DNA from: an uncultured virus (IMG/VR IMGVR_UViG_2865147665_000001)
Taxonomy: Duplodnaviria; Heunggongvirae; Uroviricota; Caudoviricetes
Length of the DNA stretch: 64,000 bases
Virus record (IMG/VR): IMGVR_UViG_2865147665_000001
Span: 1 to 64,000 of that record
Reading direction: 5' to 3' (one strand)
Each line of letters opens with the position of its first letter. Within the stretch, counting starts at the first letter, position 1. The translations under genes and the position numbers were made by a program. A model generated the notes under the pieces. That model did no database searches. It was not told the DNA's origin and saw nothing but the letters and a program-made list of their open reading frames with translations. Of the stretch, positions 32,622 to 60,700 are shown one piece after another.

Positions 32622-32768
32622 TGATATCTCCTTTCGGTTGATTGCGAGTTGGTGTGGAGGCGGCAGCGGCAGTCTCTCCGTGTTCGAAGCGGGTCATGGA
32701 CTGTGCTTGCGACGGCACCATGAGCGTTGCTCAGTCGTCCCGCCCCCGAGGGGTCATCTGGACCCCGG

Positions 32769-32842
32769 TACTCATGGCGGGAGTCGAACCCGCATCCACC
32801 GTCTTTTGAGGACGGCGGCTCTGCCAGTTGGCCTACATGAGC
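32769..32842 (-). tRNA. tRNA-Leu (CAA), short variable loop, 3' CCA not fully encoded
   Basis: Cloverleaf GCTCATG/CATGAGT, D arm GGC-CAACTGGCAGA-GCC, CCGTC-CTCAAAA-GACGG, GCGGG-TTCGACT-CCCGC. Confidence 0.92.
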
Positions 32843-33105
32843 AAGGGTCTGGATACCCCGGTCAGTCGTTCCCTCCACGCCGCTGCTAAGCACGACACGT
32901 GGGTGTGGGTGGGTCATGGCGCGTCTACACACCAGCGCTCGCCACCCGTATCTCCCCGACCGGGTTCCAGGATTCAGTTCTCAAACATCGAGGTCAGCCG
33001 GCATTCCGGTGACCGTGCGCACCCGCTCCCCCACGACAGGGATGGCAGACTCATCTGCGGCGGTGCGGCCCCTCCGCTCTTCCCCAGCAGAGGGACAAAA
33101 GGGGG

Positions 33106-33603
33106 TTAGACGGTGGCCATGTCCCGGGCGAGGGGCACACCACGCTTGCGGAGGAGGCGGAGGTGGTACTGCACGGACTGGTAGGTTCTGCCGAGCGCGA
33201 GGGCGTCGTCCACGACACGGTCTGTGCTGGTGGCGAGGTACCGGTCCTCCGCCTCGGACCACCGGCCGGACCTGGTCGCGTACTTCCGGGTGATCTCCTG
33301 CCGCCGGTCACGGTGGAGGTCCCCGAGCAAGGCTTTTCTCTCGCGGTCGTAGGCGCGTTTTTCTTCCCGGTGAGCCTCGTCGTAGGCGCGGTCGTAGGCG
33401 TTCCGTTCTTCCCTGTGAGCCTCGTAGTAGGCGCGCTTCTTGGCGAGCCGTTCTTCCCGGTGCGCCTCCCAGTAGGCGCGGCCGTAGGCGCGTGTGCATT
33501 CCTTGCACCACGGGTACAGCCCGTCACGCTTGGACCTGCTCCGGTGGAACCCGGTCGCGCTCTTCGTCTCCCCGCACTTCGTGCAACGCTTCGTGTCGGT
33601 CAT
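33106..33603 (-). CDS. Zn-finger protein with RAYxEAHREE repeats
   Basis: CTKC...CKEC, three repeats, WSEAED HTH-like end. Confidence 0.7.
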   Translation of the reverse strand: MTDTKRCTKCGETKSATGFHRSRSKRDGLYPWCKECTRAYGRAYWEAHREERLAKKRAYYEAHREERNAYDRAYDEAHREEKRAYDRERKALLGDLHRDRRQEITRKYATRSGRWSEAEDRYLATSTDRVVDDALALGRTYQSVQYHLRLLRKRGVPLARDMATV

Positions 33604-34109
33604 GCTGCCCACGTCCTCGACGACAAGACCTGGACCACACACGCCCGCACGTACTCCGACAGGGACGCATCCGACTCCGCAGCAGCAGCGCGCAAAGCCT
33701 CGTACTCCCCTGCCTGCAAGGTCGTGGCGACGGTACGGGGTGCCCCGGCGGCGGGCCTGGTCTTCGGCTTCGACCGGGTGACGAACGCCGCATCGTGGGC
33801 GTCCATGCCCCGATTCCAGGCGAGTTGCAGGGCGGTGACCTCCCGCACCCCGGCGCCGGCGACAGCACGGGCAGCGTCAGCCGGGGTCGCGTCATCCTCG
33901 AACATTGCGAAGATCACGACCGCGCGGAGCTCCTTGCTGAGCTTCACGTCGGACAGGCGATCCTCCCAGCACGCCGCGAACGACTCGTACCCGAGTGGCT
34001 CCCACGCCCTGGTGGCGATGATCTGACGAATACTGTCCTCCACGGCCAGCAGGTTCTCCCGCAGGCCATCCCACAGGGCCTGTGCCTGTGACTCAGTCAG
34101 CGCGCTCAT
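33600..34109 (-). CDS. Hypothetical protein with C-terminal RHH-like segment
   Basis: GGAGG RBS; AWEPLGYESF; SLSEYVR. Confidence 0.65.
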   Translation of the reverse strand: MSALTESQAQALWDGLRENLLAVEDSIRQIIATRAWEPLGYESFAACWEDRLSDVKLSKELRAVVIFAMFEDDATPADAARAVAGAGVREVTALQLAWNRGMDAHDAAFVTRSKPKTRPAAGAPRTVATTLQAGEYEALRAAAAESDASLSEYVRACVVQVLSSRTWAA

Positions 34110-34903
34110 GCCAGCACCTCCCCGAAGTAGGTGGACCAGACCTCATCCATCAGTGGACGATCTGCCTCGGTGTAACCGTTGACGTGCCTCACCTGCCCGT
34201 TCGACAAGTTCAGCGGGTACTTCTCCGGCTCCCTACCGTGACGGTCGATGTACGCCTTCTTGAGCCTCTTGCCGAACACCCCGGCCTTCGCCTTACGCTG
34301 CCTGTCCGACAGGCCCTTCTCCGCGAGGTAGTCCTGCGCGTACAGCGGGCGGGTCGCAGGCTCCAACTCCGGGGTCTCACCGAGTCCACGGGCCAGGACG
34401 ATGCGCGCTTTCGCCTCCAGGTGATCTTCGTGGATCAGTCCGCGTGCGGCCTGGCACAGCTCCATCTGCATCTGTGCCTGACGCAGCAGGGCGTTGATCT
34501 GGTGCTCATCGGCACGCGGGTTGATCGCACCACCGGAGTGGAAGTACTTGTCGAGAGCATCGGCAGCCTCAGCCTGGTACGCCTCCAGTGCTTCACGGTG
34601 CTCCGGGGCGACACGGCCGGCATCAATCGTGGCGAGCCACATCGTCAGAGTGCGGCGATCCACAAGGTGCATCTCGCGCTCCTTGCCGTCATCGGCAACC
34701 AGGGTCATCATGACCTCGGTTGCCCACGACTTCGCGTGAAGCTTCCGACGCTGACTCTTCGGATCAATCCCGAGAGACTTGCAGATGTGGGTGACGCTCG
34801 CCCACTCCTTGCCGTCCTGCTGGACAGCCATGATCGGGGCGGCACCGGGTACCGAGACTGGGACAAGGTTGGTAGGATTCTTGGCGTTGGCTCCGGGATG
34901 CAT
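34106..34903 (-). CDS. Antirepressor (P22 Ant N-terminal-like)
   Basis: ICKSLGID...QRRKL, MWLATI, YQAEAADALDKYF. Confidence 0.85.
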   Translation of the reverse strand: MHPGANAKNPTNLVPVSVPGAAPIMAVQQDGKEWASVTHICKSLGIDPKSQRRKLHAKSWATEVMMTLVADDGKEREMHLVDRRTLTMWLATIDAGRVAPEHREALEAYQAEAADALDKYFHSGGAINPRADEHQINALLRQAQMQMELCQAARGLIHEDHLEAKARIVLARGLGETPELEPATRPLYAQDYLAEKGLSDRQRKAKAGVFGKRLKKAYIDRHGREPEKYPLNLSNGQVRHVNGYTEADRPLMDEVWSTYFGEVLA

Positions 34904-34934
34904 CCGGGGCCTCCTTTCATGTGTTGGGTGGGGG

Positions 34935-35162
34935 TCAGGCGGCGGCGGGCTGTTCGGCGGCCGACATGGAGACGAGGAGCCGCTCAGGTCGGGCGCCGAT
35001 CTTCACCAGCGCCTCCATCACGTCCCAGGACGCCCGACGAGTGCTCGCCGTCTTTGCCCACGTCTTCCGCGTGATGTGGGTCAGGTCCTCCATGGCCGTC
35101 CATGAATCGATGCGGTTCATCCGCTTAACCCGGTCGATCTCGTCAAGAGAGAGTAGAAGCAT
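34935..35162 (-). CDS. Cro-like regulator
   Basis: First gene of the leftward operon, divergent from the repressor; HITRKTW HTH. Confidence 0.65.
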   Translation of the reverse strand: MLLLSLDEIDRVKRMNRIDSWTAMEDLTHITRKTWAKTASTRRASWDVMEALVKIGARPERLLVSMSAAEQPAAA

Positions 35163-35200
35163 TCCCTTTTTCACCTCCGTTTGCTGGGCTGCTGTCCCGA

Positions 35201-35228
35201 ACACTACTCACTTTCCGGGAAGTTGCAA
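35201..35228 (-). promoter_or_regulatory. Candidate early lytic promoter TTGCAA-N16-TAGTGT
   Basis: Match to actinobacterial SigA consensus upstream of the cro-like gene. Confidence 0.5.
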
Positions 35229-35320
35229 CCCTGTGGTTACACATCGAGGGACCCCTCTTCCCAAAAGTGCACGTAGCTCCCCACTTGCTGAGTAGATAGT
35301 TACCCGCTAAGGTGTTCCGC

Positions 35321-35791
35321 ATGGACACCAAGAAGTGGTTCGCAGAGACCTCCCACCGACGCATCACCGACGACGTGATCGCCGAGCTCCTCAACGTCAC
35401 CCGCAAGACCGCCAACAAGCGCGTCAACGATGGACTGTCGATGGACGACCTGGTGACCATCTCGAGAGGCCTGGACATCAACCCCGTCCAGGCACTCGTA
35501 GAGCTCGGGCACCTCGAGTACGACGAGGTCGAGCAGTTCCTCGACTCGGACGGTCAACTGGTGGCAACAGCAACCCCCGGCCAGCTCTCCCTCGAACTCG
35601 CGCGACAGCTCAACCCCGCGACATTCGCCCCAGAGCTCGACATGCTCGCTGAGCGCCGGGCGAAGAAATCGCACGACCGGGTGCCCCCACGTCCGGACGG
35701 TGAGGACAATGGTCTTCCCCTCGGCTCTGTCGCCTACAGCGGCGAAGACGAGGACGCCCGAAAGGACCAGGAGGAACGTGACTTCGACTAA
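35321..35791 (+). CDS. Immunity repressor (HTH)
   Basis: IAELLNVTRKTANKR HTH; divergent orientation; followed by ImmA. Confidence 0.75.
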   Translation: MDTKKWFAETSHRRITDDVIAELLNVTRKTANKRVNDGLSMDDLVTISRGLDINPVQALVELGHLEYDEVEQFLDSDGQLVATATPGQLSLELARQLNPATFAPELDMLAERRAKKSHDRVPPRPDGEDNGLPLGSVAYSGEDEDARKDQEERDFD

Positions 35792-36179
35792 CGCCACCGG
35801 GTTCACCACACTCGCGGTGATCGCCGACTTCCTCGGCGTCACCCTCACCCACCACGACGACGGCCCACCCGGCTACTACACCCATCACAGGCGCACCATC
35901 AGCACACGTCGTAATCTGAGCGTCGGCATGTACCGCTCAGTCCTCGCACATGAGCTAGGGCACGCCGCCTACCAGGACACCACCACAACCCCCGGAATCT
36001 TCACCCTGAAACAGGAACGCCGCGCTGACCGATTCGCATTAAGGCTCCTCTTCACCGATGAAGAGTTCGCCGAAGCTTACACGTGGTGCGGGCCCTGTAT
36101 CCCAGCACTCGCAGACGAGCTCGAATGCTCACAGCACCACATTCGTCTGTACATGACACTCAAGAAGGACACCCCATGA
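35778..36179 (+). CDS. ImmA/IrrE metallopeptidase
   Basis: LAHELGH, QERRADRFA, LADEL. Confidence 0.9.
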   Translation: MTSTNATGFTTLAVIADFLGVTLTHHDDGPPGYYTHHRRTISTRRNLSVGMYRSVLAHELGHAAYQDTTTTPGIFTLKQERRADRFALRLLFTDEEFAEAYTWCGPCIPALADELECSQHHIRLYMTLKKDTP

Positions 36180-36751
36180 CCGACCAGAACCCCTACGGCC
36201 AGCAGCCCCAGCAGCCCGGACAGCCGTACCCCGCACAGTCGTACCAGCAGCCCGAACCCCCCAAGAAGAAGCCCTTCTACAAGCGCGTGTGGTTCATCAT
36301 CCTGGCGATCATCGTCGTCATCATCATCATCGCCGGAGTAGCCGGCGGCGGTGACGACAAGAAAGACACCGCCTCGGCGAACAGCACAGCCGCCGCCGCA
36401 CCGGAGGCGCAGCCCGGCACCGAGTCCGGAGACCAGTCGGGAGCACAGCCCGGCACCGAGTCCGACGGCAACGTGATGCAGCTCGTCCTCGAATCCGACG
36501 GTGCCCCGATCAACGCTAGCTGGCTGCAGAACGGGAACACCGCCCAGGAGCAGGGTGTGGCATCCGGGTGGACCAAGGACATTCCCGCCGACACGAAGTG
36601 GGATGCCCTCATGAACAACGTGACCGGGCAGCTCGACGGGGCGGGCACCCTGACCTGCCGCATCCTGTGGAACGGTGAGGTCATCACCGAATCCACCTCC
36701 ACGGGCGACTACGCGGTCGTGACCTGCACGCCCGACATGGACAAGATGTGA
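36176..36751 (+). CDS. Single-TM surface protein with MmpS-like domain
   Basis: KKKPFYKRVWF + TM; TCRILWNGEV...AVVTC. Confidence 0.75.
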   Translation: MTDQNPYGQQPQQPGQPYPAQSYQQPEPPKKKPFYKRVWFIILAIIVVIIIIAGVAGGGDDKKDTASANSTAAAAPEAQPGTESGDQSGAQPGTESDGNVMQLVLESDGAPINASWLQNGNTAQEQGVASGWTKDIPADTKWDALMNNVTGQLDGAGTLTCRILWNGEVITESTSTGDYAVVTCTPDMDKM

Positions 36752-36975
36752 GGAAACCCCCGGCCGCAGCACCAGCGACCGGGGGCGGACTACCCACAGA
36801 CAGCGCGGTCCCGACCCCGCGCATCGCCGGGTGAAAGGACAAAGCCCCGGCGACACGTCACACGCTACGAGCACCGGTGCCACCCGCACCGCTCAGCGAC
36901 AGTGAAAACCCCCACCACCGGGCAGGGTGATGAGGGCCAGAATGTCCGAACGCATCAGACGAAAGAGAGCATACC

Positions 36976-38211
36976 GTGAGCATCCAGCGACGGCCGAAGA
37001 AGGGCGACCCACTCCCCGACGGGTGGAAGAAACCGAAGTGGGTGGTCCGCTACCGGGACCCCTCCGGCAAGGAGCACTCCAAGACCTTCACGACCGAGAA
37101 AGCCGCGAAGGACTTCGACAAGGACCAGGGCGTGAAACTTGCCCGCGGCACCTGGATCGACCCCGCCGACGAGAAAACAACCCTCGCGCAGCTGGTCGAC
37201 GAGTGGGTAGCGCAGGCACGCAACGACGGCACCCGCGGTGTCCGCGAGGGATTCAGGGCGAACCTGGGCGACTTGGCGGACATGCCCGTCGGCCAGATCC
37301 GGTCGAGCCACATCAAGAAGTGGGCGACCGACCTGTACCGCGGACGCCCGTGGAAGGGAGGCCGCCCCCTGGCTGATACGACCACGGGACAGCACATTTC
37401 CCGGATGAAGGGGATATTCGACCGTGCGGTGGAGGATGGTCTGATCTCGAGGTCCCCGGTGCCGTCGACGCTGAAGTCGTCGATCCTGCAGGACCGTGAG
37501 GTCCAGGAGCGTGAGGTGCCGACCTTCGATCAGGTCAAAGCCATGTGCCGGGCAGCGGAGGCAGGCGGGGAGTTCGCGAACGGGCGCGTGAAGAAGGTTG
37601 CCGGCCGGTCGAAGCTCCGTCCTGCTCCGTGGCTGGCGATGGCGATACGACTTGGTGTGGACACTGGTCTGCGTGTCGGGGAGCTGTCGGGCCTGCAGTG
37701 GCGTGATGTGGATCTGGAGGGGCGCAGGATCCACGTCGAGCGGCAGTGCATCAAGAAGCTGCAGGTCTACAGCGGGCTGAAGACGAAGCGGTCTCGGAGG
37801 GTCGTGCCACTGTCGCGGGCGATGGCACGAGAGCTCGAGCAGTGGCGTGTGGGCCGTGGCCCTGAGGATCCGGTGGTGCCGGGGATTGGTGGGCGTGGGA
37901 CGTCTTCGATCCAGCTGTCTCAGGTGATGCGTGTGCTGGGGGCGGTTGTGGGCCTGGATGACAGGTTGTGGCGGTTCCATGGGCTGAGGCATCTGTACGC
38001 CTCGTCGATGCTGCAGTCCGGTGAACCGATCACGACGGTGGCGGCGTTGATTGGTGACAGTGTGCCGACGACGTCGCGGGTGTATGCGCATTGGCTTCGT
38101 GGGGCTCAGGATGCGGCGAGGGCGTCGGTGGAATCTCTTGCGGGATCGGTGCGGGATGGGTCGCCTGTGCTGAGGGTGGTTGATGGGGGTCGTGGCAGGT
38201 CAGTCGGCTAG
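36976..38211 (+). CDS. int: Tyrosine integrase
   Basis: TGLRVGEL, LKT, FHGLRH, SRVYAH. Confidence 0.95.
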   Translation: MSIQRRPKKGDPLPDGWKKPKWVVRYRDPSGKEHSKTFTTEKAAKDFDKDQGVKLARGTWIDPADEKTTLAQLVDEWVAQARNDGTRGVREGFRANLGDLADMPVGQIRSSHIKKWATDLYRGRPWKGGRPLADTTTGQHISRMKGIFDRAVEDGLISRSPVPSTLKSSILQDREVQEREVPTFDQVKAMCRAAEAGGEFANGRVKKVAGRSKLRPAPWLAMAIRLGVDTGLRVGELSGLQWRDVDLEGRRIHVERQCIKKLQVYSGLKTKRSRRVVPLSRAMARELEQWRVGRGPEDPVVPGIGGRGTSSIQLSQVMRVLGAVVGLDDRLWRFHGLRHLYASSMLQSGEPITTVAALIGDSVPTTSRVYAHWLRGAQDAARASVESLAGSVRDGSPVLRVVDGGRGRSVG

Positions 38212-43301: not shown

Positions 43302-43455
43302 GGGGGATCAGGGGGATGTTTTCACTCAAAACGTAGAAATCCGGAAAAACGTATTACTGGGGATGCAACAACTATCAGTGCGATATTGGGCCTCTACCCA
43401 CTAATGTGTTTTTCCGAAAATTCATAGAGGGGCCGAAAATGGCCCCCGATCCCCC
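43302..43455. repeat. Imperfect inverted repeat with ~60-bp arms (candidate replication origin)
   Basis: gggggatcaggggg...cggaaaaacgtattactggg versus cccactaatgtgtttttccg...cccccgatccccc. Confidence 0.75.
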
Positions 43456-43503
43456 TAACGCCCCCATGCCGCAAGCACCGGCACCGCCTATCAGCACTAC
43501 CTA

Positions 43504-43533
43504 TTGACGCTGGGCGCTGCATGTTGGTAATGT
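43504..43533 (+). promoter_or_regulatory. SigA-type promoter TTGACG-N18-TAATGT with extended TG
   Basis: Near-consensus -35 and -10 boxes. Confidence 0.7.
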
Positions 43534-43539
43534 TGTCGC

Positions 43540-43856
43540 TAGCACTTCGGTGACGGTATGCGAGTCGCTGGAGCGGGGATAACCCCGAGGGTGGATGGGA
43601 GCAATGAGATCTCCTACCACGGTGTAGCACACCGAACGGGTAGCACCGGTAATCCTCCGACGAGAATGAAAACATTGCGTAAGTCCTGGAGCGGCACGCC
43701 AGGCAGTGAAAGAGGCCAGGTAGGGAGTTAGCGCTCCTGTAAAGCGATGGCGGGGTCTCCCCCCGCTGGCGAGCTGCGCACGGTTCTTCAGGCCGCCTGG
43801 GTGACAAGCCGGGAAAGCACCCCTCTCCGGACAGTTCAAGCTGTCTGGAGTTTTTT
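43540..43856 (+). ncRNA. Candidate ~320-nt structured leader / ncRNA
   Basis: Bounded by promoter and terminator; at least seven hairpins including a TTCG tetraloop. Confidence 0.55.
43825..43856 (+). terminator. Intrinsic terminator overlapping the RBS of the xis-like gene
   Basis: ctccggacag-ttcaag-ctgtctggag-tttttt; ATG at 43858. Confidence 0.8.
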
Positions 43857-44058
43857 CATGAGTGCTCCTCTAGTCACTCTTCAAGAAGCCGTAGAAGAAG
43901 GTTACGGCGCCTACTCAACACTTCGCATGTGGATTGCCCAGGGCAAACTACCTGCTTATAAAACAGGCTCGCGCATCAAGGTGCGGCGTGAGGACCTCGA
44001 TGCATTGCTGACCCCCGTTGGCCCGGATGGGCCTTGCCCGCAAATCGTGGACAGGTAA

Positions 44059-44949
44059 CTAAGCTGCCTCAGGTTCCTCAGCAGCAGGTTTGTTGAACAG
44101 ATTCATTTCGAACTCCACCGGCGGCACATACCCCAGCGACGAGTGCAGCCGTCGTCGGTTGTAGACCACTTCAATCCAGCGGGCCACAGCCTGCCGAGCC
44201 TCGGCCCGGGTGTGCCAGGTGTACCGGTCGTAGAACTCGGTCTTCAGCGTCGCCCACACACTCTCGGCCATCGCATTGTCCCAACACACCCCGGTCCGGC
44301 CCATTGACTGCAGTGCCTGCAGGTCCTGGCACACCCGGTGCATCTGTTCGCTGGTGAACTGGCACCCACGATCAGCGTGGAACACCACATCAACGGGCAG
44401 CTCACCGCGTATCGTGTGGGCCATACGCAGGGCTCGTTCCACCAGGTCAGTGTGCATGTGGGTGTCCATCGCCCAGCCGATGATCCGCCGGGAATGCGCG
44501 TCGGTGACCGCCGCCAGATACACCCAGCCTTCACCGGTGCGCAGATAGGTGATATCGGAAATCCAGCACCGGTCGAGCCCGCCTTTGTCCCAGCAACGTC
44601 GTGCCCGGTCGGGGATCGCGTGGGTGTTGACACCAGGCAGCGTGGTCACCGGGGAGAACTTCTTGGGACTGATCCCCTCCAAGCCCTGGCGCAGCATCGA
44701 CTTCGCCACGGTCTTGCGGTCAACGACCGTCCCCTCACGAGCCAGCTGGGCATGCACCCGGGGAGCGCCGTAGACCTCGTCGGACTCGGTGAACACCGTC
44801 CGGACCTTCGCGTCGAGGTCGTCGCGCTCACGGCGTCTGGGCGATGGTTCTCTCGCTTGCCTGGCCGCCCAGGCATAGAACCCAGACCGGGACACTCTCA
44901 GCAGGCGGGCCATACGGGTGACCTCGTAATTCGCCTTCTCCTGCGCCAT
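44059..44949 (-). CDS. IS3 transposase OrfB (DDE)
   Basis: WISDITY, HADRGCQF, DNAMAES. Confidence 0.95.
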   Translation of the reverse strand: MAQEKANYEVTRMARLLRVSRSGFYAWAARQAREPSPRRRERDDLDAKVRTVFTESDEVYGAPRVHAQLAREGTVVDRKTVAKSMLRQGLEGISPKKFSPVTTLPGVNTHAIPDRARRCWDKGGLDRCWISDITYLRTGEGWVYLAAVTDAHSRRIIGWAMDTHMHTDLVERALRMAHTIRGELPVDVVFHADRGCQFTSEQMHRVCQDLQALQSMGRTGVCWDNAMAESVWATLKTEFYDRYTWHTRAEARQAVARWIEVVYNRRRLHSSLGYVPPVEFEMNLFNKPAAEEPEAA

Positions 44950-45278
44950 CAGTTCGAACCGTTCGTCGGTGGCTGCTTGGCAGCGAAGAAGGCTGCTGCT
45001 TTTCCCAGAAACTCATTGTCCTTGTGCAGATCAGCGACCTGGCGGCGCAGTCGTTTGAGTTCGGCGCGTTCATCCAGGTCCAGCTCACCGGTGGGTTCAC
45101 CGGCGTCTTTAGCGCGTTCGGTGGCGACCCACTTGCCCAAGGTCTGGGCACCGACGCCGAGTTCGCGGGCGACTTCGGCGATGGTGCGTCCGGTGTCGAT
45201 GACCAGTCGGGCGGCTTCGTGTTTGTATTCCGGGCTGAAGTTTCGCCGTGGTCGCCGGCCAGCGGTGTTGTCGGTCAT
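44949..45278 (-). CDS. IS3 transposase OrfA
   Basis: HTH IAEVARELGV; LGKAAAFFA; GGGAAAAG frameshift window near 45000. Confidence 0.93.
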   Translation of the reverse strand: MTDNTAGRRPRRNFSPEYKHEAARLVIDTGRTIAEVARELGVGAQTLGKWVATERAKDAGEPTGELDLDERAELKRLRRQVADLHKDNEFLGKAAAFFAAKQPPTNGSN

Positions 45279-45447
45279 GGTGACATCCTCTCGTGCGGGA
45301 CGGATCCCGCTAAATCGGGTGTCCACTCAACGAGGGTAGGGCCAGGATCCCATCGATGTCGCCATTGACGAGCTCGTTTCGGCTGCACCTACCTTGTCGT
45401 CCGAGCAACGCTCGCGTCTGGCATCCCTCGTAGGGGGTGCCTAAGAC

Positions 45448-48400
45448 ATGACGGAAGAGAAGAACCCCGCCGTTGCTAGCGACGGGGCAAAAGAAGCGGA
45501 TCTGGGTAATGCTTCTGAAGTTGATGCTACCCACTCCGCTTCCTCCGCGCCAGTCCAATCTGTACTTGACCAGCGACTTTCTGCGGAGCACTTCACCGAG
45601 CTTCAGACATCGGCGATCAGCGACGATGTGATCGAGGCGTCCGGTGCGTACACGGCCTGGGAGAGGGATGATTTGCCCGATCCATTGCGATGGGTCGGTG
45701 ACCGCGACGGTGCGCTGCCCGCTCTGGTGTTCCCACTGACCGAGGCCGGTAAGGGTGAGACCTGGCAGGCCAAGCCACAGCCTGGCTTTGTCACGCTGAC
45801 CGACGGTCGCTCACCCAAATACATCGGCCCCAGCAAGGACTCCGGCTACCCCACCCCAGCACTCATTGAGCGTCGGGCTGTGGATGATACGACCCGCCGT
45901 GTCCTCGTGGTCGAGGGCACGAAGCAGGCACTGGCTGTGATGTCGGCAAGCGATGAGAGCACTGCGGTCTACGGCCTGTCGGGAATCACGTCCTGGATGG
46001 GTGGCGATGATGGCCCTAGCTCGGCGTTTCAGCTTGTCGGTGGCTTGCCGGTCTATATCGTCGCCGACGCTGACGCCGCGAGGAACCGCAGGGTCTATGA
46101 CGGGGCCGCAGGTATCGGCGAGCTCTGTCGACAGTGGGGCGCGAGCCCCGTCCGGTTCGTTCGCTTCCCCGGTAGCGGTAAGCAGGGCATCGACGATGTG
46201 CTTGGCGGTATTGATTCCCCCGCGCAGCGGGAGAAGATGCTGGAGCTGTGGGTCAAACAGGCCGAGGATAAGCCTGCCAAGAAGCGGCCCAGCTTGAGCA
46301 GCACGATACCTACGAAGGATACTTCGCAGGGGTCTGACGGATCGGCCAAGCCGATTATTAGCACGGACCTGCCCGACGACCAGATCTGGGACGCGGTAGA
46401 CAACGCGGTATATGAGAAGTTCGCTGGTAAGCGGCTTTTTCGCACCGACCACAAACTCGTGTGTCTCGTGCATCGTGATGGACGCAAACACCTCATTCCG
46501 GTGAGTAACGCTCTGGCGGTGGATTTGTCGGCGCAGGCGATTCGGATTGTTCACTCCACGCAGACGAAGTCGAAGGTTCGGGCGCTGTCTGACAAAGACG
46601 CGGCTACCGTTTTCAACGGCGCACGTGTCGGACGGTATCCCCGCATCGAGGGCATCGTGGAGACGCCTGTGCTCACCCCGAGCGGCAGGGTCTTGTCCGA
46701 GCCCGGCTACGACGAAGAGACCGGCCTGTTACTCGACTTGTCCGATGATCTCGACGGCTTCCACGTGCCGGATGACCCGTCACAGGAAGAGGTCACAGCT
46801 GCCCGCGAGCTCCTGGAGGAGGTCTACGCCGACTTCCCGTTCAAGACGGAAGCTGACCGGACCCGTGCTATCGGCATGGTACTCACCCTGCTTGTCCGCC
46901 CGTCGTGCGAGACCTCGCCAATGCACGTCATCTCGGCTAACACACCGGGCACAGGCAAGGGCCTGTTGCTGTCTGCCGTGAGCATGATTGCTCACGGCTA
47001 CGGCGCGCGGGTGCAGAAGATGCCCCATCACGATGAAGAGATGCAGAAGGTACTCACGTCGGCGCTTCTCGCTGGTCAGACGATGCTGATCTTCGATGAG
47101 ACCGGTGAGGGGATCGGTAGCCTGTCGCTGGCCGCCATGCTGACCTCCACCTACTACGAGGGTCGTATCCTCGGCGAGTCCCGGCACTTGTCGGTGAAGA
47201 ACTCAGCCTGCGTTTTTGCAGCCGGAAACAACGTCGCGGTGAAAAAGGATCTTGGACGTCGAACAGTGATGGTCGAGATGAAGACGCCGTTGGCGAGCCC
47301 AGAAGCTCGCGACGACTTCACACACCCGGACCTGTTGGTGTGGGTCAAAGACAACCGACGGGCCCTGCTGGAAGCCGCGTTCACACTCATCCGGGCCTGG
47401 ATCGTTGCTGGTGAGCCTGCCCCGGCACCGGGCCAGCCGGTGGGTAGCTTTGAGGACTGGTACCACGTGGTGGGTGGCGTCCTTGAGCACGCTGGTAGGC
47501 GTGACCTCATGTTTGGCGTGCGCGAGCAGCGGGCACAGCACAATGAGAGCGAACTTGAGGACCTGGCGCATCTGCACTGGGTGAGCGTGAACTTTGATGA
47601 GCCCTTCCGTGCTTATGACGTGGAGTGCAAGATTCGCGAAACGCAGGGTTTTATCCCGCTCCCGTCAGACATCCAGACCCTGGACGAGGTGACCGCGCAG
47701 CGGTTGGGTCGGGTGTACACGAAGCTTCAGGACCGTAATCTTGCTGGTTTCGTCGTCAAGATGGCCGGGATGGTCAACCACACGAAGCGCTTTAAGGTGA
47801 CCTATCTCGGCCCGGACGGGAACGGTGGTGGTCCTGGCGGCCTCAACGACCCGGACGGTGGTAGCCCCACTCCCCCTCCTGCACCTGGCGGTAGTGCTGT
47901 CGATGCCGACAACACTGGCGCATCCACGGTGGTATTCGACCTGGAGACCGCTAGCGCCGATGGGTTGCACACGACCGATGACCCTGCGTGGGTTCGCTTG
48001 GCGGCGTATCAGGTGGATGGTGGCGAGATCAGGACAACGACGGACATCGCCGGTGAGCTGCTGCCGGTTCTGCGAAACGCGGGCACGATTGTCGGGCACA
48101 ACATCACACATTTCGATCTCCCTGCGCTGGAGCGCCTATATGGCTTTGCTCCGTCGCCCGAGCAGCGCGTCGAGGACACTCTCGTGCTTGCCCGTCTCGT
48201 GGACCCTCCCACGACGGGAAAGAAGTACCACCTCGACGCTGTGGCTACCCGCCTCGGTCTCGGCGGTAAGTTGCTGGCCGATGGTGACACGGCGCTGAAG
48301 GCTCTGGCCAGCCAGCACGGTGGTTTCGACCAGATTCCAGTCGATGATCCGCAGTATGTTGCGTACGCCCGACAGGATGTGCGTGCCACGGCAGATGTCC

Positions 48401-49620
48401 ACTGTGCGCTCGTGAAGCGTGTACCGGATGCGGAGTACGTGGCCTATGAGCATGAGGTCGCTCGCGTGCTGGCTGGCGTTGAGTCGCGGGGTATCCGCGT
48501 CGATGTCGATCTCGTTGAAGAAACGCTGGCCGACGAAGACACAGTGAAAAACGGCATCCGTGGCTGGCTCGTCAATACCGTCGGCATCCCGGATGAGGGT
48601 AAGGCCCCGTGGGCGACGAAGGCCGGTAAAGAAGCTATTCAGTCCTACCTTCAGCGTTACGGGGCCCAGCTACCGTTGACGAAGACGGGTGCGCCGACAA
48701 CGACAAAAGACGCCTTCAGTGAGCTTGCCGAGCAGCACTCTGACTCGCGTGAGGTCGTCGAAGTCTGCGAGAACATGGTGGCGCTATTGGAGACGCGCAG
48801 CCCGGCGAAGACGGTGAAGAAGTACCTGCGCAGTGATCGGGTGTTCCCGTCCATCCAGCCGTCGCAAGCCACGGGTCGGTTGAGTACGACGAAGCCGGGC
48901 ATGACGATCTTTGGCTCGCGTGGTGAGCGCTTGCTTGCGCAGCGGGCGATGATCCTGCCCGAGCCGGGCGAGCGGTTGCTGTCTGTCGACCTGTCGCAGA
49001 TTGATGCTCGCTGCATGGCGGCTGCTGCCGGTGATGAGGCCTACGCGGCGCTGTTTGCCGAAGGTCGTGATGCGCACACGGAAATGGCGGTGCGGGTGTT
49101 CGGTGATCCCGGTCGTCGCCCGGATGCGAAGGCGCTCGCGCACGCGGCGAACTACGGCATGGGAGCGAGATCCTTTGCCGCGCATGTCGGTTGCAGTGTG
49201 GCCGAAGCGGAGCGGATGCTGTCGAGCCTTCATCTCGAATTCCCTCGCCTCGAAAGTTTCAAGGAACAACTGCGCAAAGGCGCGGAGACCTCAGGGTATG
49301 TGACGACCGGTTTCGGTCGACGTGTCGCTGTTAATCGGGACAAAGCGTACACCCGAGCGCCTGCCGCTTACGGCCAAGGAACGGCTCGCGACGTATTCCT
49401 CCACGGTGTGCTTGCCATGCCCGAGGACGTGCAACGAAGGATCCGCATTTTCGTCCACGACGAGGTTGTTCTGTCGGTGCCAAAGGACCGCGTTGAGGAG
49501 GTGCGACAGTGTGTGCTCGATGCCTTCTCAAGTGTCGCCCTTCCCTCCGCCGACGGCGTGCACGTTCCAGTCCTCGCGGACAGTGCGGGGCCGGGTCGGG
49601 ATTGGAGTGAGTGCAAGTGA
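45448..49620 (+). CDS. TOPRIM primase - P-loop helicase - 3'-5' exonuclease - family A DNA polymerase fusion (1390 aa)
   Basis: VVEGTK/DAD/GIDD; NTPGTGKG/LIFDE/GNN/RR; FDLET/GHNITHFD/YARQD; TGRLS, DLSQIDAR, RPDAKALAHAANYG, VHDE. Confidence 0.9.
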   Translation: MTEEKNPAVASDGAKEADLGNASEVDATHSASSAPVQSVLDQRLSAEHFTELQTSAISDDVIEASGAYTAWERDDLPDPLRWVGDRDGALPALVFPLTEAGKGETWQAKPQPGFVTLTDGRSPKYIGPSKDSGYPTPALIERRAVDDTTRRVLVVEGTKQALAVMSASDESTAVYGLSGITSWMGGDDGPSSAFQLVGGLPVYIVADADAARNRRVYDGAAGIGELCRQWGASPVRFVRFPGSGKQGIDDVLGGIDSPAQREKMLELWVKQAEDKPAKKRPSLSSTIPTKDTSQGSDGSAKPIISTDLPDDQIWDAVDNAVYEKFAGKRLFRTDHKLVCLVHRDGRKHLIPVSNALAVDLSAQAIRIVHSTQTKSKVRALSDKDAATVFNGARVGRYPRIEGIVETPVLTPSGRVLSEPGYDEETGLLLDLSDDLDGFHVPDDPSQEEVTAARELLEEVYADFPFKTEADRTRAIGMVLTLLVRPSCETSPMHVISANTPGTGKGLLLSAVSMIAHGYGARVQKMPHHDEEMQKVLTSALLAGQTMLIFDETGEGIGSLSLAAMLTSTYYEGRILGESRHLSVKNSACVFAAGNNVAVKKDLGRRTVMVEMKTPLASPEARDDFTHPDLLVWVKDNRRALLEAAFTLIRAWIVAGEPAPAPGQPVGSFEDWYHVVGGVLEHAGRRDLMFGVREQRAQHNESELEDLAHLHWVSVNFDEPFRAYDVECKIRETQGFIPLPSDIQTLDEVTAQRLGRVYTKLQDRNLAGFVVKMAGMVNHTKRFKVTYLGPDGNGGGPGGLNDPDGGSPTPPPAPGGSAVDADNTGASTVVFDLETASADGLHTTDDPAWVRLAAYQVDGGEIRTTTDIAGELLPVLRNAGTIVGHNITHFDLPALERLYGFAPSPEQRVEDTLVLARLVDPPTTGKKYHLDAVATRLGLGGKLLADGDTALKALASQHGGFDQIPVDDPQYVAYARQDVRATADVHCALVKRVPDAEYVAYEHEVARVLAGVESRGIRVDVDLVEETLADEDTVKNGIRGWLVNTVGIPDEGKAPWATKAGKEAIQSYLQRYGAQLPLTKTGAPTTTKDAFSELAEQHSDSREVVEVCENMVALLETRSPAKTVKKYLRSDRVFPSIQPSQATGRLSTTKPGMTIFGSRGERLLAQRAMILPEPGERLLSVDLSQIDARCMAAAAGDEAYAALFAEGRDAHTEMAVRVFGDPGRRPDAKALAHAANYGMGARSFAAHVGCSVAEAERMLSSLHLEFPRLESFKEQLRKGAETSGYVTTGFGRRVAVNRDKAYTRAPAAYGQGTARDVFLHGVLAMPEDVQRRIRIFVHDEVVLSVPKDRVEEVRQCVLDAFSSVALPSADGVHVPVLADSAGPGRDWSECK

Positions 49621-53470: not shown

Positions 53471-56400
53471 TTACTCACCTGTCAGCTCTTCCTCGGTCAC
53501 CGTGAGGTCAGCAGGCAGCACGCCATCGATGATGTAGGTGCGCAGGAGCTTGTCCAGCATCGCACGAACCTTGAACTTCGACACTGGTGCGCCAGTGACC
53601 TCGGTGAAGTAGGCGGTAGCCAAGTCGAGGTCAATGGATGCCTTGAGGTCATCGAAACGCCCGTACTCGTTGATGGTTGCTGCCGTAACACGGCTGTCGA
53701 GTATTCGGCGCAATAGTCCCGTATCCAGCCCCAGTCGCTCATGAAGACGTGCCAGCTGCCGGTCACGCTCGGTGATGCGGTACTCGTTGATGTAGTCCTG
53801 CACTGTCTTGCCCGGTTGCAGGGCCACGTCGCCTGCCTGGAGATCATGCAGCCAACGGTTAGCGTAGCGCTGGTCGTCTTGGCTTAGGCGGGCGAAACTA
53901 TCATGTAGCTGCTCCAGCAGATCATCGAGCATGTGCTCTGCCACGCCGTCCTGGAGTGCCTTGAGGTACTTCTCAAACTTGCTGTTGAGGTACTCGGCAT
54001 CGATGCGGTCGGTGTCGATGTGCGTGATGTGCACGTCAATATCGAAGGGCGCGTCATCTGCCCCACCGGGTGGGTCAGTTGGATCGCCTCCCTCCTTGCC
54101 AAGTTCCTTGTAACGGGTGAGCAATGTGGTGAAGACGTCCTCGGTGAGCGTTACCACGATAGGTTCAGGGAGTGCATCGAAGTAGTAGGTGTCCTTCTCC
54201 CAGGTAAAGCCCTGCACCTGTGCTGCCTGGAGTTCGCGGTACATCCGATTGAAGGTCTTGGCGAACTCGCCCTGGTCAGCCTCAGAATCGGGCAGCTTCG
54301 AGAAGTCCGTCTGGCCGGTCGCCGGGTCAGTGAACAGCACTGTAATGATCTCAAAACATTCATTGATGGCCTTAAGGTGCTCGTCGAGGTGGTCCACGAA
54401 CAGGCCGAAAGGCTTGTCACCTGAATACAGCTTCACCGCACGGTCGATGTTGTTCTTCATCGTGTGTGGCTTGCGGTAGTAGCGGATGGAACCGAACGGC
54501 TTTTCCGGGCCGAAGATGCGGTTGGTGCGTGAAAAGGCCTGGATAATGGACTCGTATTCGATAACCTTGTCCATGTAGAGGGTGCTGAGCCACTTGGAGT
54601 CGAAGCCGGTGAGCATCTGGTCCACCACGATGAGTAGGTCAATGTGCTGGCTACGGTCATCGAGGAAGGCCTTGGTGTTGTAGGGCGCCTTGTGGGCCAG
54701 GCGCTTGGAAACATCCTTCTTAAACTCATCGTGAGTCGGCATGGTGAAGTGCTGGCCATAGGCAGCGTTGTAGTCGCGGAGAATCTCCAGCAAACCGTCT
54801 TCCTTGAACAGCTGACTGTCACCAGTGTTGTCGATATTAGGATCAAACAGCGCCGTGACCTTAATGTGCGGGTACTGCGCCTTGAAGATGCGGTAGTACT
54901 CCACTGCTTCAGGGATGCTGGAGGTCGCCAGGATGGCATGGAACATACTGCCCCGACTCAACTGTGCCCAGTGCTCGTTAATGTCGCGGGCAACCGCCTG
55001 GCGGTGGTTGTCTTGACGGTACTGAGTGATAGGCAGGTAGTCTTCGATACCCTTGGCGACACGCTTGGTACCACTGTCGGTGTCTGTCTCATAGACGCTG
55101 GCCATCGGGACCTGGTCCTTGTCCATAAACTTGTAGTAGACAGCCGCCTTCTTGGGGTCCGCCAGAGCCTCGTCCACGGACGTGGCCTTGGCCTCCTGGA
55201 GAGCAACCACAGTGCGCACATCATGCGCCCGGAAGGTTTCCACCATCTCCGGGTCGAAGCCGAGGACGTTACCGTCGCGAATACCGTCGGCAATTGAATA
55301 GCGGTGCAGCTCATTGCCAAACAGCGTGGTCGTGGTGGAGTGCTTCTTCTGGTTCTCGTCGTGGATGGGCGTGCCGGTGAACCCAAAGAACAGCGCGTTC
55401 GGCAAAGTGCGCTTAATGGTCGCGAGCATGTCACCAAAGGTGGTGCGGTGTGCCTCATCGACGATGAACACCACACGCTTGGAGCGGATGATGTCCAGGT
55501 CGGCTTTCTTGACGGAATCAGCATTAACCCTGCTCATCTTGTGCAGGGAGGTCACGATGAGGGTGGAGTGCTTGTTCTTGAGCAACGTTATCAACGTGGC
55601 AGCACTGGAGGTATCTTCCACGGCGATGCTGTCGCCACCGTAGCTTTCGTAGTTCTCCAACGACTGCGTGCCCAGCTCCACACGGTCGAGGAGGAACACT
55701 ACCTTGTCGGCGTTGTGGGAGTCTGCGATAAGCTGCGCGGTCTTGAAGCTGGTAATCGTCTTGCCAGAGCCGGTGGTGTGCCAGATGTAGCCACCGAGTT
55801 GGTCACCACTGTCCCAGTCGTGACGGTCCACACGGTCAGCGATACGAGAGGCTGCGTAGTACTGGTAGGAACGCATGGCCAACAGGTTGCCAGAGGCCCG
55901 GTCGGCGACAGTGTAGAAACCAATGAGCTGGTGCGCCATCGGAATAGACAGTAGTGCTCGTGCCACATCGTCCCACTGGTTGACCGGCTCGTTGTTGAAA
56001 TCCGCCCAGTGGAAGAAGTAGTCCGGGTTGAACTTAGCTGACCCTGGGTTGGCGAAGTAGAGTGTTTCCTCCGGGGTCATCGCCACAAAGATTTGCACCA
56101 GAGAGAAGATGCCCTGGTAGACGCCCTCGTGGGCGTACTTGGCTACCTGGTTGGCGCCTTGCGAGACAGGCACGCCTGAGCGCTTGAGTTCGATGTGGAA
56201 GACCGGCATACCGTTGATGAGCAGCATCAGGTCGCCGCGTCGTTTCGGCAGCAGCTCATCAGCGGTCTTGAAACGAGGCTGGACGGCAATCTGGTAGCGC
56301 GACTGGCCACCGGCAATCTCCAGGCGGTCATATATTTTCAGGCTGACTTCCACGCCGAAGTTGTGGGCCTGCGGCGCATCACGGGTGATGGTGACTGTGC

Positions 56401-56662
56401 GACCGTTGATGAACTCGTTGAGAGCCAACGGCGTGCGCAGCACGTTGATCTGCTCGATGATTTGCGCCATCTCGCCCTCGGTGAGTGGCACATCGCCCAG
56501 CAGGTCACGGCCCCGGTTGTTGGCGTAGAGAATGTTGGCCCAGTTGTCGATGAGCTGTTGTTCCGTCGGGTAGCGCAGTAGCTCATCGCTCCAACCGTGG
56601 CGGGTGAGCAGGTCGATGAGCGCCGCCTCGAACTCAGCCTCGCAGCGAAATGATGTGGTCAT
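53471..56662 (-). CDS. hsdR: Type I restriction endonuclease subunit R
   Basis: HIELKR, HTTGSGKT, DEAHR, FTGTP, QAFSRTNR. Confidence 0.96.
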   Translation of the reverse strand: MTTSFRCEAEFEAALIDLLTRHGWSDELLRYPTEQQLIDNWANILYANNRGRDLLGDVPLTEGEMAQIIEQINVLRTPLALNEFINGRTVTITRDAPQAHNFGVEVSLKIYDRLEIAGGQSRYQIAVQPRFKTADELLPKRRGDLMLLINGMPVFHIELKRSGVPVSQGANQVAKYAHEGVYQGIFSLVQIFVAMTPEETLYFANPGSAKFNPDYFFHWADFNNEPVNQWDDVARALLSIPMAHQLIGFYTVADRASGNLLAMRSYQYYAASRIADRVDRHDWDSGDQLGGYIWHTTGSGKTITSFKTAQLIADSHNADKVVFLLDRVELGTQSLENYESYGGDSIAVEDTSSAATLITLLKNKHSTLIVTSLHKMSRVNADSVKKADLDIIRSKRVVFIVDEAHRTTFGDMLATIKRTLPNALFFGFTGTPIHDENQKKHSTTTTLFGNELHRYSIADGIRDGNVLGFDPEMVETFRAHDVRTVVALQEAKATSVDEALADPKKAAVYYKFMDKDQVPMASVYETDTDSGTKRVAKGIEDYLPITQYRQDNHRQAVARDINEHWAQLSRGSMFHAILATSSIPEAVEYYRIFKAQYPHIKVTALFDPNIDNTGDSQLFKEDGLLEILRDYNAAYGQHFTMPTHDEFKKDVSKRLAHKAPYNTKAFLDDRSQHIDLLIVVDQMLTGFDSKWLSTLYMDKVIEYESIIQAFSRTNRIFGPEKPFGSIRYYRKPHTMKNNIDRAVKLYSGDKPFGLFVDHLDEHLKAINECFEIITVLFTDPATGQTDFSKLPDSEADQGEFAKTFNRMYRELQAAQVQGFTWEKDTYYFDALPEPIVVTLTEDVFTTLLTRYKELGKEGGDPTDPPGGADDAPFDIDVHITHIDTDRIDAEYLNSKFEKYLKALQDGVAEHMLDDLLEQLHDSFARLSQDDQRYANRWLHDLQAGDVALQPGKTVQDYINEYRITERDRQLARLHERLGLDTGLLRRILDSRVTAATINEYGRFDDLKASIDLDLATAYFTEVTGAPVSKFKVRAMLDKLLRTYIIDGVLPADLTVTEEELTGE

Positions 56663-56671
56663 GACAGCTCC

Positions 56672-57910
56672 TTAGATGAACATCCGTTGCAGCAGCGCCG
56701 TCTTGGCTTGCTTGAGGGACTCGATGTACTGAGCCTCAGCGGCAATGAGGGAATCTAGCCGGGTAAACACTGCGCCGATGGCCTGTTGTTCTTCGAGGGT
56801 GGGTGGAATGAAGACTTCCAAGTTCTTTACTAAGGCGCCGGACAGATTACCTTGCCCGCCTTGCAGGTACGTGTCAGTGATGTTCTTCTTGTTCATCCTT
56901 AGCCATGCCACTAGGTAGGCAGCGTTAAACCCATCACGTGGAATTAGCGCGAGAATCGCCTGGTTAATGGCACCTTCAATCTTAGCTAGGCTTACTTCAC
57001 CCGCAGTCGCACCATAAAGCGCGTAGAGCACCCACCCTGGCTGAACCATCTTGGCAGAACTGAAATGAAGCCCTGCCTCAGTAAGGGTTAACTCAGTGAA
57101 TGAGCTAGAAATTTCTGAGGAACGGATAAAGGGGATGTCCCCACCGTAGAACGCGTTTGTGCCAACAGTAGGTGTTCCCCCAGAAAACGAGTCTGCGATT
57201 GCTCCTACCTTAACGACATCCCACTCACCGTCGAATCCCTCCAGCCGCAGCTCGGGCACTGTCTGGCCCTCCTGCGGGAACATGCACTGCATGAGCGCCG
57301 TCTTGGCCTGCTGCAGCGCCTTGTGCTTGAGCATGTGCTGGTTGATGGCCGCGTCGAGATTGGTGAAGATAGCGCCGATGGCCTGCTGTTCTTCGAGGGT
57401 GGGTGCAAGCGTAACGGGAACTTCCAGGAAGTCTTGAGCAGATATGTTGAGCAAGCCGTGGTTTCGCGCGCCTTCAGCGGAATTGGCTTCTACAAACCTA
57501 TGCCAGCTGGAAGTTTCAAAGAAAGTGACTAGGAAATCTCCATCAATGGGTGGATGTTCCAAGAGTCGAAACACAATGTAGAGAGATGACAGGACGCCAC
57601 GGTCGTACTTGTCGAGACGTTTTACAGTTCCAACAGGATGTCCGGCTGAAAAGCTTTTGTTATATGCAAATTCACCATTCTCTACGAGCAGATAGTTTCG
57701 GAGATTCGCACTGGCCACTCGATTGTTGAAGTAGGTGATCTGATCCACCAGACCGTACTGAGCAGAGATAGTAAGCGGTAGGGTGCTTTGCAGGTCTGTG
57801 TTCTTCCGCTGCACCCTTTCAGTGAAGGTGTTCAGAGGCACAGTCTCCCACTCACCATCGAAGCCCTCCAGCCGCAGTGCGGGTACGTTCTGCTTAGGCA
57901 TCACGACCAC
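56672..57910 (-). CDS. hsdS: Type I specificity subunit
   Basis: Two TRDs bounded by repeated LRLEGFDGEW and PTLEEQQAIGA. Confidence 0.95.
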   Translation of the reverse strand: MVVMPKQNVPALRLEGFDGEWETVPLNTFTERVQRKNTDLQSTLPLTISAQYGLVDQITYFNNRVASANLRNYLLVENGEFAYNKSFSAGHPVGTVKRLDKYDRGVLSSLYIVFRLLEHPPIDGDFLVTFFETSSWHRFVEANSAEGARNHGLLNISAQDFLEVPVTLAPTLEEQQAIGAIFTNLDAAINQHMLKHKALQQAKTALMQCMFPQEGQTVPELRLEGFDGEWDVVKVGAIADSFSGGTPTVGTNAFYGGDIPFIRSSEISSSFTELTLTEAGLHFSSAKMVQPGWVLYALYGATAGEVSLAKIEGAINQAILALIPRDGFNAAYLVAWLRMNKKNITDTYLQGGQGNLSGALVKNLEVFIPPTLEEQQAIGAVFTRLDSLIAAEAQYIESLKQAKTALLQRMFI

Positions 57911-60509: not shown

Positions 60510-60700
60510 AATCGCTCGATTATGGACACCTCTGGACGGAGAGGGTCGAGACGTGACTCGCAACGCCCGAAAGATGTTCCACAATCGCTGTTCTGGTTCT
60601 CCATTGTACCATAACTGACCAATTGACGATTATGGAACATATAGTTTCGCTTGTTGCGGTAACTACCCTGCACGGTGTCCGACCTTGTGCGAAGATTCCT

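Follow-up and report, generated by a model that had tools for sequence, protein, structure and literature searches.

A covarying leader RNA ahead of the xis-like gene of actinobacterial mobile islands and its possible role as a translational switch

Translational riboswitches and protein-responsive leaders join a conserved, tertiary-looking core to a hairpin that sequesters the Shine–Dalgarno (SD) sequence, the 3′ strand of the core overlapping that hairpin. Structured leaders also head the replication operons of satellite-like elements, as exemplified by the P4 immunity leader (SeqA-CI-SeqC) and Gifsy-1 IsrK; at the Gifsy-1 IsrK locus, in the part of the source that treats it, the ribosome-binding site (RBS) is hidden in an alternative fold and freed by IsrK (PMC4825925). 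The excisionase motif, as presented in the sections of Weinberg 2007 devoted to it, is a single hairpin of ~88 nucleotides (nts) with a conserved G-rich loop, and its gene is almost devoid of phage context (PMC1950547). Actinobacterial IME-pipolins, according to the main text describing them, possess a large serine recombinase and a relaxase, reside in FtsK/SpoIIIE genes and carry defence genes; that main text does not once use the term "non-coding" (bioRxiv 10.1101/2024.05.22.595293). The serine integrase of phiRv1 has a small recombination directionality factor (RDF) (PMC1470463). The RNA described here is, like the P4 and IsrK leaders, a structured leader heading the replication operon of such an element and, like the excisionase motif, is actinobacterial, lies 5′ of an xis-like gene and places a stem near the SD. 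It occurs in the window, by which we mean the entire 64,000-nt stretch analyzed (positions 1 to 64,000 of IMG/VR record IMGVR_UViG_2865147665_000001), at the left end of an island whose principal features are as follows.

43251 to 64000, no strand assigned: host element, an integrative mobilizable island of ~21 kb in an eccC/FtsK gene
43858 to 44058, + strand: xis-like HTH_17 gene (PF12728, TIGR01764, comparison with the copy L001)
44028 to 45344, − strand: IS3-type insertion (rve and HTH_21 domains, 3-bp duplication, absent from L001)
45448 to 49620, + strand: primase-helicase-PolA fusion (PF00476; relatives in Corynebacterium, some with PF12965)

The island interrupts the Walker A codons of eccC/FtsK, splitting G-S-G from K-S-E-F-L-R, and its right end lies near 64524 in the contig. 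Domain matches identify in the island the xis-like HTH gene, a 1390-aa PolA-ended protein, MobC, a relaxase, a resolvase and a type I restriction-modification system, with a large serine recombinase at the far end; the restriction-modification cargo and an ISL3-like transposase occupy 53471-62027. Judged by its family labels, the xis-like product is a putative RDF acting on the serine recombinase. An uninterrupted copy of the element, L001, 99% identical, sits in the eccC gene of a Corynebacteriaceae genome and encodes a xis-like product of 88 aa. In the window, the last ~31 codons of this gene have been removed by an insertion that we infer from its two-ORF layout to be of the IS3 type, and which parts the leader and xis from the replicase gene. 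In the uninterrupted element the primase-helicase-PolA gene is the next gene of the operon, and in homologs it abuts or overlaps the xis stop codon. Its product is a single-chain primase-helicase-exonuclease-PolA protein that is widespread in Corynebacterium islands; the named relatives of this large PolA-type protein come from Corynebacterium. The Toprim-PolA replicase appears to be exchangeable with PolB within one island backbone. A nested inverted repeat (43302-43464) separates the att junction from the promoter; it has 20-nt arms (43342-61 and 43397-416) inside G-rich and C-rich arms and is likely the origin used by the replicase. Similar inverted repeats occur in the Toprim-PolA elements L007, L008, L010-L015, L017 and L020, the L007 copy being located between xis and primase; the PolB-type elements viewed carry none of this type. 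A second, prophage-like element in the window (32767-38211) comprises a tRNA-Leu, an antirepressor-like ORF, an HTH repressor, an ImmA-like ORF (by eye) and a tyrosine integrase.

The leader itself, ~315 nts in length, extends between a promoter-like site and the xis start codon, and comprises the following features.

43504 to 43533, + strand: predicted SigA-type promoter (−35 TTGACG 43504-09, TG 43525-26, −10 TAATGT 43528-33)
43545 to 43573, + strand: H1, a 10-bp hairpin with a 5′-side bulge and a GCGA (GNRA-type) loop, from the fold and from homolog folds by eye
43576 to 43586, + strand: H2, a 3-bp hairpin with a conserved AUNAC-type loop, its 3 pairs kept in all 24 loci parsed, with A-U/U-A swaps
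43587 to 43657, + strand: multibranch 5′ domain with P5 (43587-92/43652-57) as its closing helix and hairpins 43591-43620 and 43620-43634 inside it
43685 to 43703, + strand: optional hairpin between the two domains, covarying where present, absent from L030, L034 and L037
43711 to 43826, + strand: 3′ core, P1 (43711-15/43822-26) stacked on P2 (43716-20/43796-800), from covarying alignments and the tree
within the 3′ core, + strand: four-way junction closed by P2, with P3 (43723-27/43734-38), a GUAAA linker, P3a (43744-46/43777-79) and P4 (43781-83/43793-95)
43748 to 43768, + strand: optional hairpin held by P3a
43801 to 43821, + strand: one-sided 21-nt bulge separating P2 from P1 on their 3′ strands
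43809 to 43830, + strand: alternative helix predicted to form between CCGGG of the bulge (43809-13) and TCCGG (43826-30), incompatible with the SD hairpin
43825 to 43856, + strand: 10-bp SD hairpin, its 3′ arm containing GGAG (43847-50), followed by T6, from the fold and as a terminator-like site

A prior sequence-only reading of this DNA had proposed a structured leader behind a near-consensus promoter and ending in a terminator that hides the xis RBS; every hairpin it listed, and the promoter, are present in the sequence where it placed them. The promoter elements TTGACG and TG-extended TAATGT are separated by a spacer of 18 nts, and in 30 of the 32 homologous loci a TAnnnT box recurs 47-50 or 64-65 nts 5′ of H2, but a sigma-70 scan of the region called 0 promoters, missing the 43504-43533 site as well. 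The transcription start would likely lie near 43540-41. A xis-like ORF follows the RNA in 30 of the 32 loci, with one further ORF matching at E 0.002 and one truncated. In the assembled contigs of 8 public runs, most of them presumed to be RNA, coverage is flat over the leader and its flanks, a pattern that is uninformative about transcription.

Examined as a single sequence, the leader is only marginally structured: its fold has a z of −1.73, with 7 of 100 shuffles as good, and it contains 9 Watson-Crick hairpins against 5.7 ± 1.7, a number reached in 15 of 300 shuffles. The structure becomes clear once homologs are compared. The homolog alignment consists of 25 loci, duplicates and near-duplicates (L001, L002, L028, L039, L041-L051, L055 and L056) having been dropped; it excludes L066, a locus found later via a loose pattern that matched 320 of 321 genomes. 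For the 3′ core, a plain MAFFT alignment of 17 sequences has 96.3% of cells paired and both partners altered in 14 of 34 pairs, and a model-fitted alignment of 24 distinct rows has 95.9% paired, with 17 of 34 pairs so altered; 0 of 500 shuffles match either result, and slid controls reach at most 47%. Mapped on the tree, the pairs underwent 39 double and 22 single pair-keeping changes, and 17 to or from an unpaired state. This strong covariation bears out the claim of a structured leader. The hairpin row first read is present in the sequence, but it missed the long-range helices P1, P2, P3a, P4 and P5. The unpaired nucleotides are conserved as well: the junction G, U, A, A, a single A, and the bulge A..CCGG are identical in all 24 full-core rows. 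In the window, the consensus core scores −45 kcal/mol versus −61.5 for the predicted minimum, and the cores fold no better than their shuffles (z −0.83 to +1.44). The core, if formed, must therefore depend on tertiary contacts or on a partner, since it is neither the predicted minimum nor more stable than shuffled sequence.

The 5′ portion of the leader begins with H1, whose stem arms are predicted at 43545-54/43564-73 and which has a matching 5′ hairpin in most homologs (by eye). The cacTTCGgtg hairpin that had been read here does exist in the sequence, but its 3-bp stem is probably not real, the 10-bp H1 with its GCGA loop being predicted instead. Pairs 1-4 of P5 are kept in 24 of 24 loci, with three pair types at positions 1 and 2, though the 3′ arm was picked by best pairing, which favours this result. 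The 4-mer TAGC, possibly a protein-binding repeat, has four copies in the leader (43539-43732), two of them as hairpin loops, and is found in the loops of many homologs.

Several of these features bear on the strand and the molecule in question. Counted as + strand RNA, the aligned cells contain 60 G-U and 7 A-C combinations, and the fold of the − strand is no better than shuffles (z 0.13). We regard as highly improbable the notion that the conserved entity is a single-stranded DNA signal, such as a single-strand origin or a transfer origin, and not an RNA. The elements do carry relaxases, and G-T pairs are tolerated in single-stranded DNA hairpins, but the spacing from the promoter box and from the start codon is fixed, the loops are of the GNRA type, and the origin-like inverted repeat at 43302-43464 is a distinct feature further upstream.

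At its 3′ end the leader meets its gene. The SD GG is predicted to be paired in all 25 rows, the start codon lies 5-9 nts 3′ of the SD in all 25, and the loop of the SD hairpin varies among homologs. The last stem thus hides the xis RBS, as had been read, and its position would suit it to gating the first operon of the mobile element. Its second ascribed role, that of an intrinsic terminator, does not hold generally: a T tract (at least 5 T in 8 nts) follows the SD hairpin in 8 of 25 rows and an uninterrupted run of at least 5 T in 3 of 25, leaving 17 of 25 rows with no T tract and several with no T run longer than 2. Because the SD is buried in every row and the T tract is found in only 8, the conserved trait is translational blocking, not termination. 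A transcription attenuator, in which the last hairpin would be an intrinsic terminator, the CCGG helix its antiterminator, and an RNA of ~315 nts the released product, is in our estimation improbable. It draws on the terminator-like site with T6 in the window, the T-rich tails of those 8 rows, and the fact that actinobacterial terminators can have weak U tracts; against it stand the 17 rows in which SD pairing persists with no T tract, and the expectation of 0.9 such terminator-like sites by chance in the region. The alternative that the region is translated, as an N-terminal extension or leader peptide starting at 43747, is ruled out. Only 4 of 26 rows have this frame open and in register with xis, and a frameshift disrupts it in L006, the closest copy (99% identical), so the leader is non-coding. 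The SD hairpin is also identical across distant clades (L057 versus L052 and L031), and it seems to be the crossover point for the swapping of RNA cores and xis genes.

Our preferred reading, which we hold with roughly balanced confidence, is that the leader is a default-off translational switch of the xis-like gene, opened by a trans-acting factor that is most likely a host or helper protein. By default, the finished 3′ arm of the hairpin would bury the SD, and the xis-like protein together with the translationally coupled replication and mobilisation genes would remain silent. The 3′ core, that is P1/P2, the junction and the bulge, would act as the sensor. A trans-acting factor, most likely a protein supplied by the host or a helper element and not the Xis or replicase of the island itself, would occupy this core and, during transcription, hold P1 together with the bulge-CCGG helix, such that the 5′ arm of the hairpin is captured while it emerges and the SD is left free. 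In the clades with T tracts, the window included, the SD hairpin may end transcription as well.

The element on which such a switch would turn is the alternative helix. P1 and the SD hairpin overlap at 43825-26, and CCGG is conserved both in the bulge and in the 5′ arm (with one C-to-T change in the arm), while the hairpin partners of the latter drift between G-U and G-C. Four pairs of the alternative helix are kept in 24 of 24 rows and the fifth in 22 of 24 (G-U, A-U or C-G); 98.3% of its cells are paired, a level equaled in 44 of 500 shuffles, such that its covariation is not significant. The helix features in the minimum free energy fold of truncated L017 and is absent from those of six other truncated cores (1 of 7 folded), and it is ~10 kcal/mol weaker than the SD-hairpin state (−34.3 versus −44 to −45, with the pseudoknot unscored). 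The minimal homologs L021 and L066, which have lost most of the junction, keep P1, the bulge and both copies of CCGG. Together, these observations are compatible with a model in which pairing of the invariant bulge CCGG with the 5′ arm of the hairpin would free the SD.

Which factor might open the switch can be approached through the company that the RNA keeps. Downstream of homologous RNAs lies a Toprim-PolA protein, a PolB-type protein, in L037 a different primase-like ORF (by eye), or, in the L040 group, no recognisable replicase within 20 kb; at least two of these replicases are unrelated. The PolB assignment of L059-type homologs is indicated by the NCBI name DNA-directed DNA polymerase and by distant PF03175 matches; a PolB query was found solely in its own centre genome (1 of 346). 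Since the RNA precedes xis whatever replicase follows, it is not a partner of the replicase, and the suggestion that it might be one finds no support as a general rule. A broader version, a stand-alone RNA cofactor of an element enzyme, be it replicase, relaxase or recombinase, strikes us as very unlikely indeed. The size of the RNA and its two-domain, tertiary-looking fold would suit such a cofactor, as would its own predicted promoter and the terminator-like end in the clade of the window. The replicases downstream are unrelated or missing, however, the start codon is always 5-9 nts away, and the domains are lost independently of each other (L015, L021).

The island's own Xis is a doubtful factor as well, because RNA and Xis have been swapped between elements: in 10 locus pairs the RNAs share 90% identity or more and the Xis proteins no more than 45%, and in 4 pairs the RNAs share 72% or less and the Xis proteins no less than 70%, although over 22 loci the two identities correlate with a Spearman coefficient of 0.40. 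An antisense mechanism akin to that of P4, whose RNA-mediated premature termination the sequence-only reading had cited, found no backing in a search for conserved complementary targets. Six single-stranded segments in 25 rows form duplexes upstream and downstream that are no longer than with shuffled targets; for the bulge, the lengths are 6.2 versus 6.1 upstream and 6.6 versus 6.3 downstream, with no common position. The stem-closed multibranch shape of the core resembles that of C4 RNA, and the palindromic CCGG could pair between molecules. The position of the leader within a satellite-like element also matches that of the P4 leader (PMC4825925). Even so, we deem it quite unlikely that a processed leader sRNA acts in trans on nascent leaders of its own or incoming elements in the manner of P4 CI, C4 or IsrK, given that no C4-type Rfam match appears at E up to 10 and that loop and bulge duplexes equal their shuffled controls, with the adjacent CCGG helix the one pairing left.

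A host or helper protein is thus selected by elimination of the replicase, Xis and P4-type antisense, and a small molecule is the remaining alternative. A riboswitch, with the core directly binding a metabolite, ion or nucleotide signal and turning translation on, is in our view unlikely. The leader does combine a covarying 5′ UTR structure with a conserved unpaired core and overlap with an expression platform: its unpaired junction and bulge nucleotides are invariant, the 3′ strand of the core overlaps the SD hairpin as befits an aptamer joined to its platform, and the RNA is independent of neighbouring proteins. Weighing against a riboswitch, most of the junction is missing from L021 and L066, the distribution is narrow (1 of 151 genomes in the class-wide sample), the downstream genes suggest no metabolite, and no Rfam riboswitch model matches at E up to 10. 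We likewise give little credence to the fuller form of this proposal, a new riboswitch class by which defence islands, namely pipolins and their PolA-type cousins, would directly sense a small-molecule sign of phage infection, DNA damage or the arrival of a conjugative helper, and activate excision, replication and transfer with no repressor protein.

The preferred protein-responsive switch must also be set against the distribution of the RNA. The replicase is present in 15 of 321 Corynebacterium genomes, and 6 of these 15 elements have the 3′ core directly 5′ of xis, one of them in a minimal form. Among the others, L015 has the 5′ domain only, 2 are interrupted by insertion sequences, and 6 have unrelated leaders; the 3′ core is thus dispensable for the Toprim-PolA element type, as L015 and those 6 attest. 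Different leaders of 200-280 nts, undetected by the model, lie 5′ of xis in L010, L013, L007, L011, L012 and L020. Those of L010, L013 and L020 likewise end with a hairpin directly before the start codon, L010 and L013 have motifs in common, and the leaders of such related islands are possibly further RNA families. A covariance model of the 3′ core matches in 13 of 151 Corynebacterium genomes, in 1 of 151 genomes of a class-wide sample (again 1 of 151 with a second model), and in 5 of 151 genomes of the family of that class-wide match, which is another actinomycete family. These counts are not independent, because 9 of the 13 Corynebacterium matches (L040-L048) are near-identical. In these nine genomes the leader-xis module, seen at L060:10051-13855 in G682, continues with a small ORF and a 448-aa protein that has no Pfam match and in which inspection by eye shows a relaxase-like DESTPH motif. 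The G682 module is surrounded by insertion sequences and resistance genes, and repeats of the TTACGAAAC type precede it. The plasmid collection yielded no match for the L040-type leader or its 448-aa neighbour. A leader homolog does reside on a Tessaracoccus plasmid (NZ_CP019608.1, L058:5776-6060), where the whole leader is kept but the xis ORF is cut off within its first few codons, at the edge of an ardA gene. A metagenome motif scan returned 16 stretches, 15 of them true homologs. The phage collection contained 0 copies of the leader RNA; pattern scans of viral sequence picked up 1, 1 and 0 loci, which we take for chance matches, and a viral scan of 23 of 64 parts gave 120 loci, with 0 model matches in the 80 screened and no xis in all 120.

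No Rfam 15 family, C4, c4-2, IsrK, riboswitches and ribozymes included, matches the leader at gathering score. Relaxing the threshold to E 10 for the window and 10 homolog loci, or to E 5 for 9 more loci, returned unrelated chance matches only. Likenesses to the c-di-GMP-I, ykkC and fluoride riboswitches, to SRP Alu and C4 RNAs and to a MOB_Q nick site are unsupported by Rfam. In the literature covered, mostly open full text, we found no account of this RNA (the supplements of PMC5737381 and PMC2864571 could list it as an uncurated motif), nor was the regulation of these small actinobacterial islands found there. The structured leaders of actinobacterial mobile islands constitute a real and apparently undescribed family. 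Such small islands spread restriction and other defence genes and occur near-identical in different hosts, and a common RNA switch on their first gene would provide a direct handle: a reporter screen with the 315-nt leader could reveal the inducing signal. The natural minimal variants L021 and L015 map the modules of the leader, a large RNA with strong covariation and an aptamer-like core that joins the candidates for riboswitches and RNA–protein regulation.

Set beside the systems described at the outset, the locus resembles each in part. In its recombinase, relaxase and FtsK site the island is similar to pipolins as their main text describes them, and several homologs of the RNA precede a PolB-type gene; in place of the primer-independent PolB that marks pipolins, the window island has a Toprim-helicase-PolA protein. 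From translational riboswitches and protein-responsive leaders it differs in that it scores with no known family and would control a mobile-element operon. The single 10-15 bp hairpin with a G-rich loop that distinguishes the excisionase motif was not seen in the leader when compared by eye with the published alignment; in contrast to that motif, as given in the same part of its source, the window RNA is ~315 nts long, multibranched and located on mobile islands, and the loop of its SD hairpin is variable. With P4 CI and C4-type RNAs it has in common that it heads the replication operon of its element. Unlike P4 CI and IsrK, it has no Rfam match and no conserved internal antisense target, belongs to an actinobacterial host, and is built from two covarying multibranch domains.
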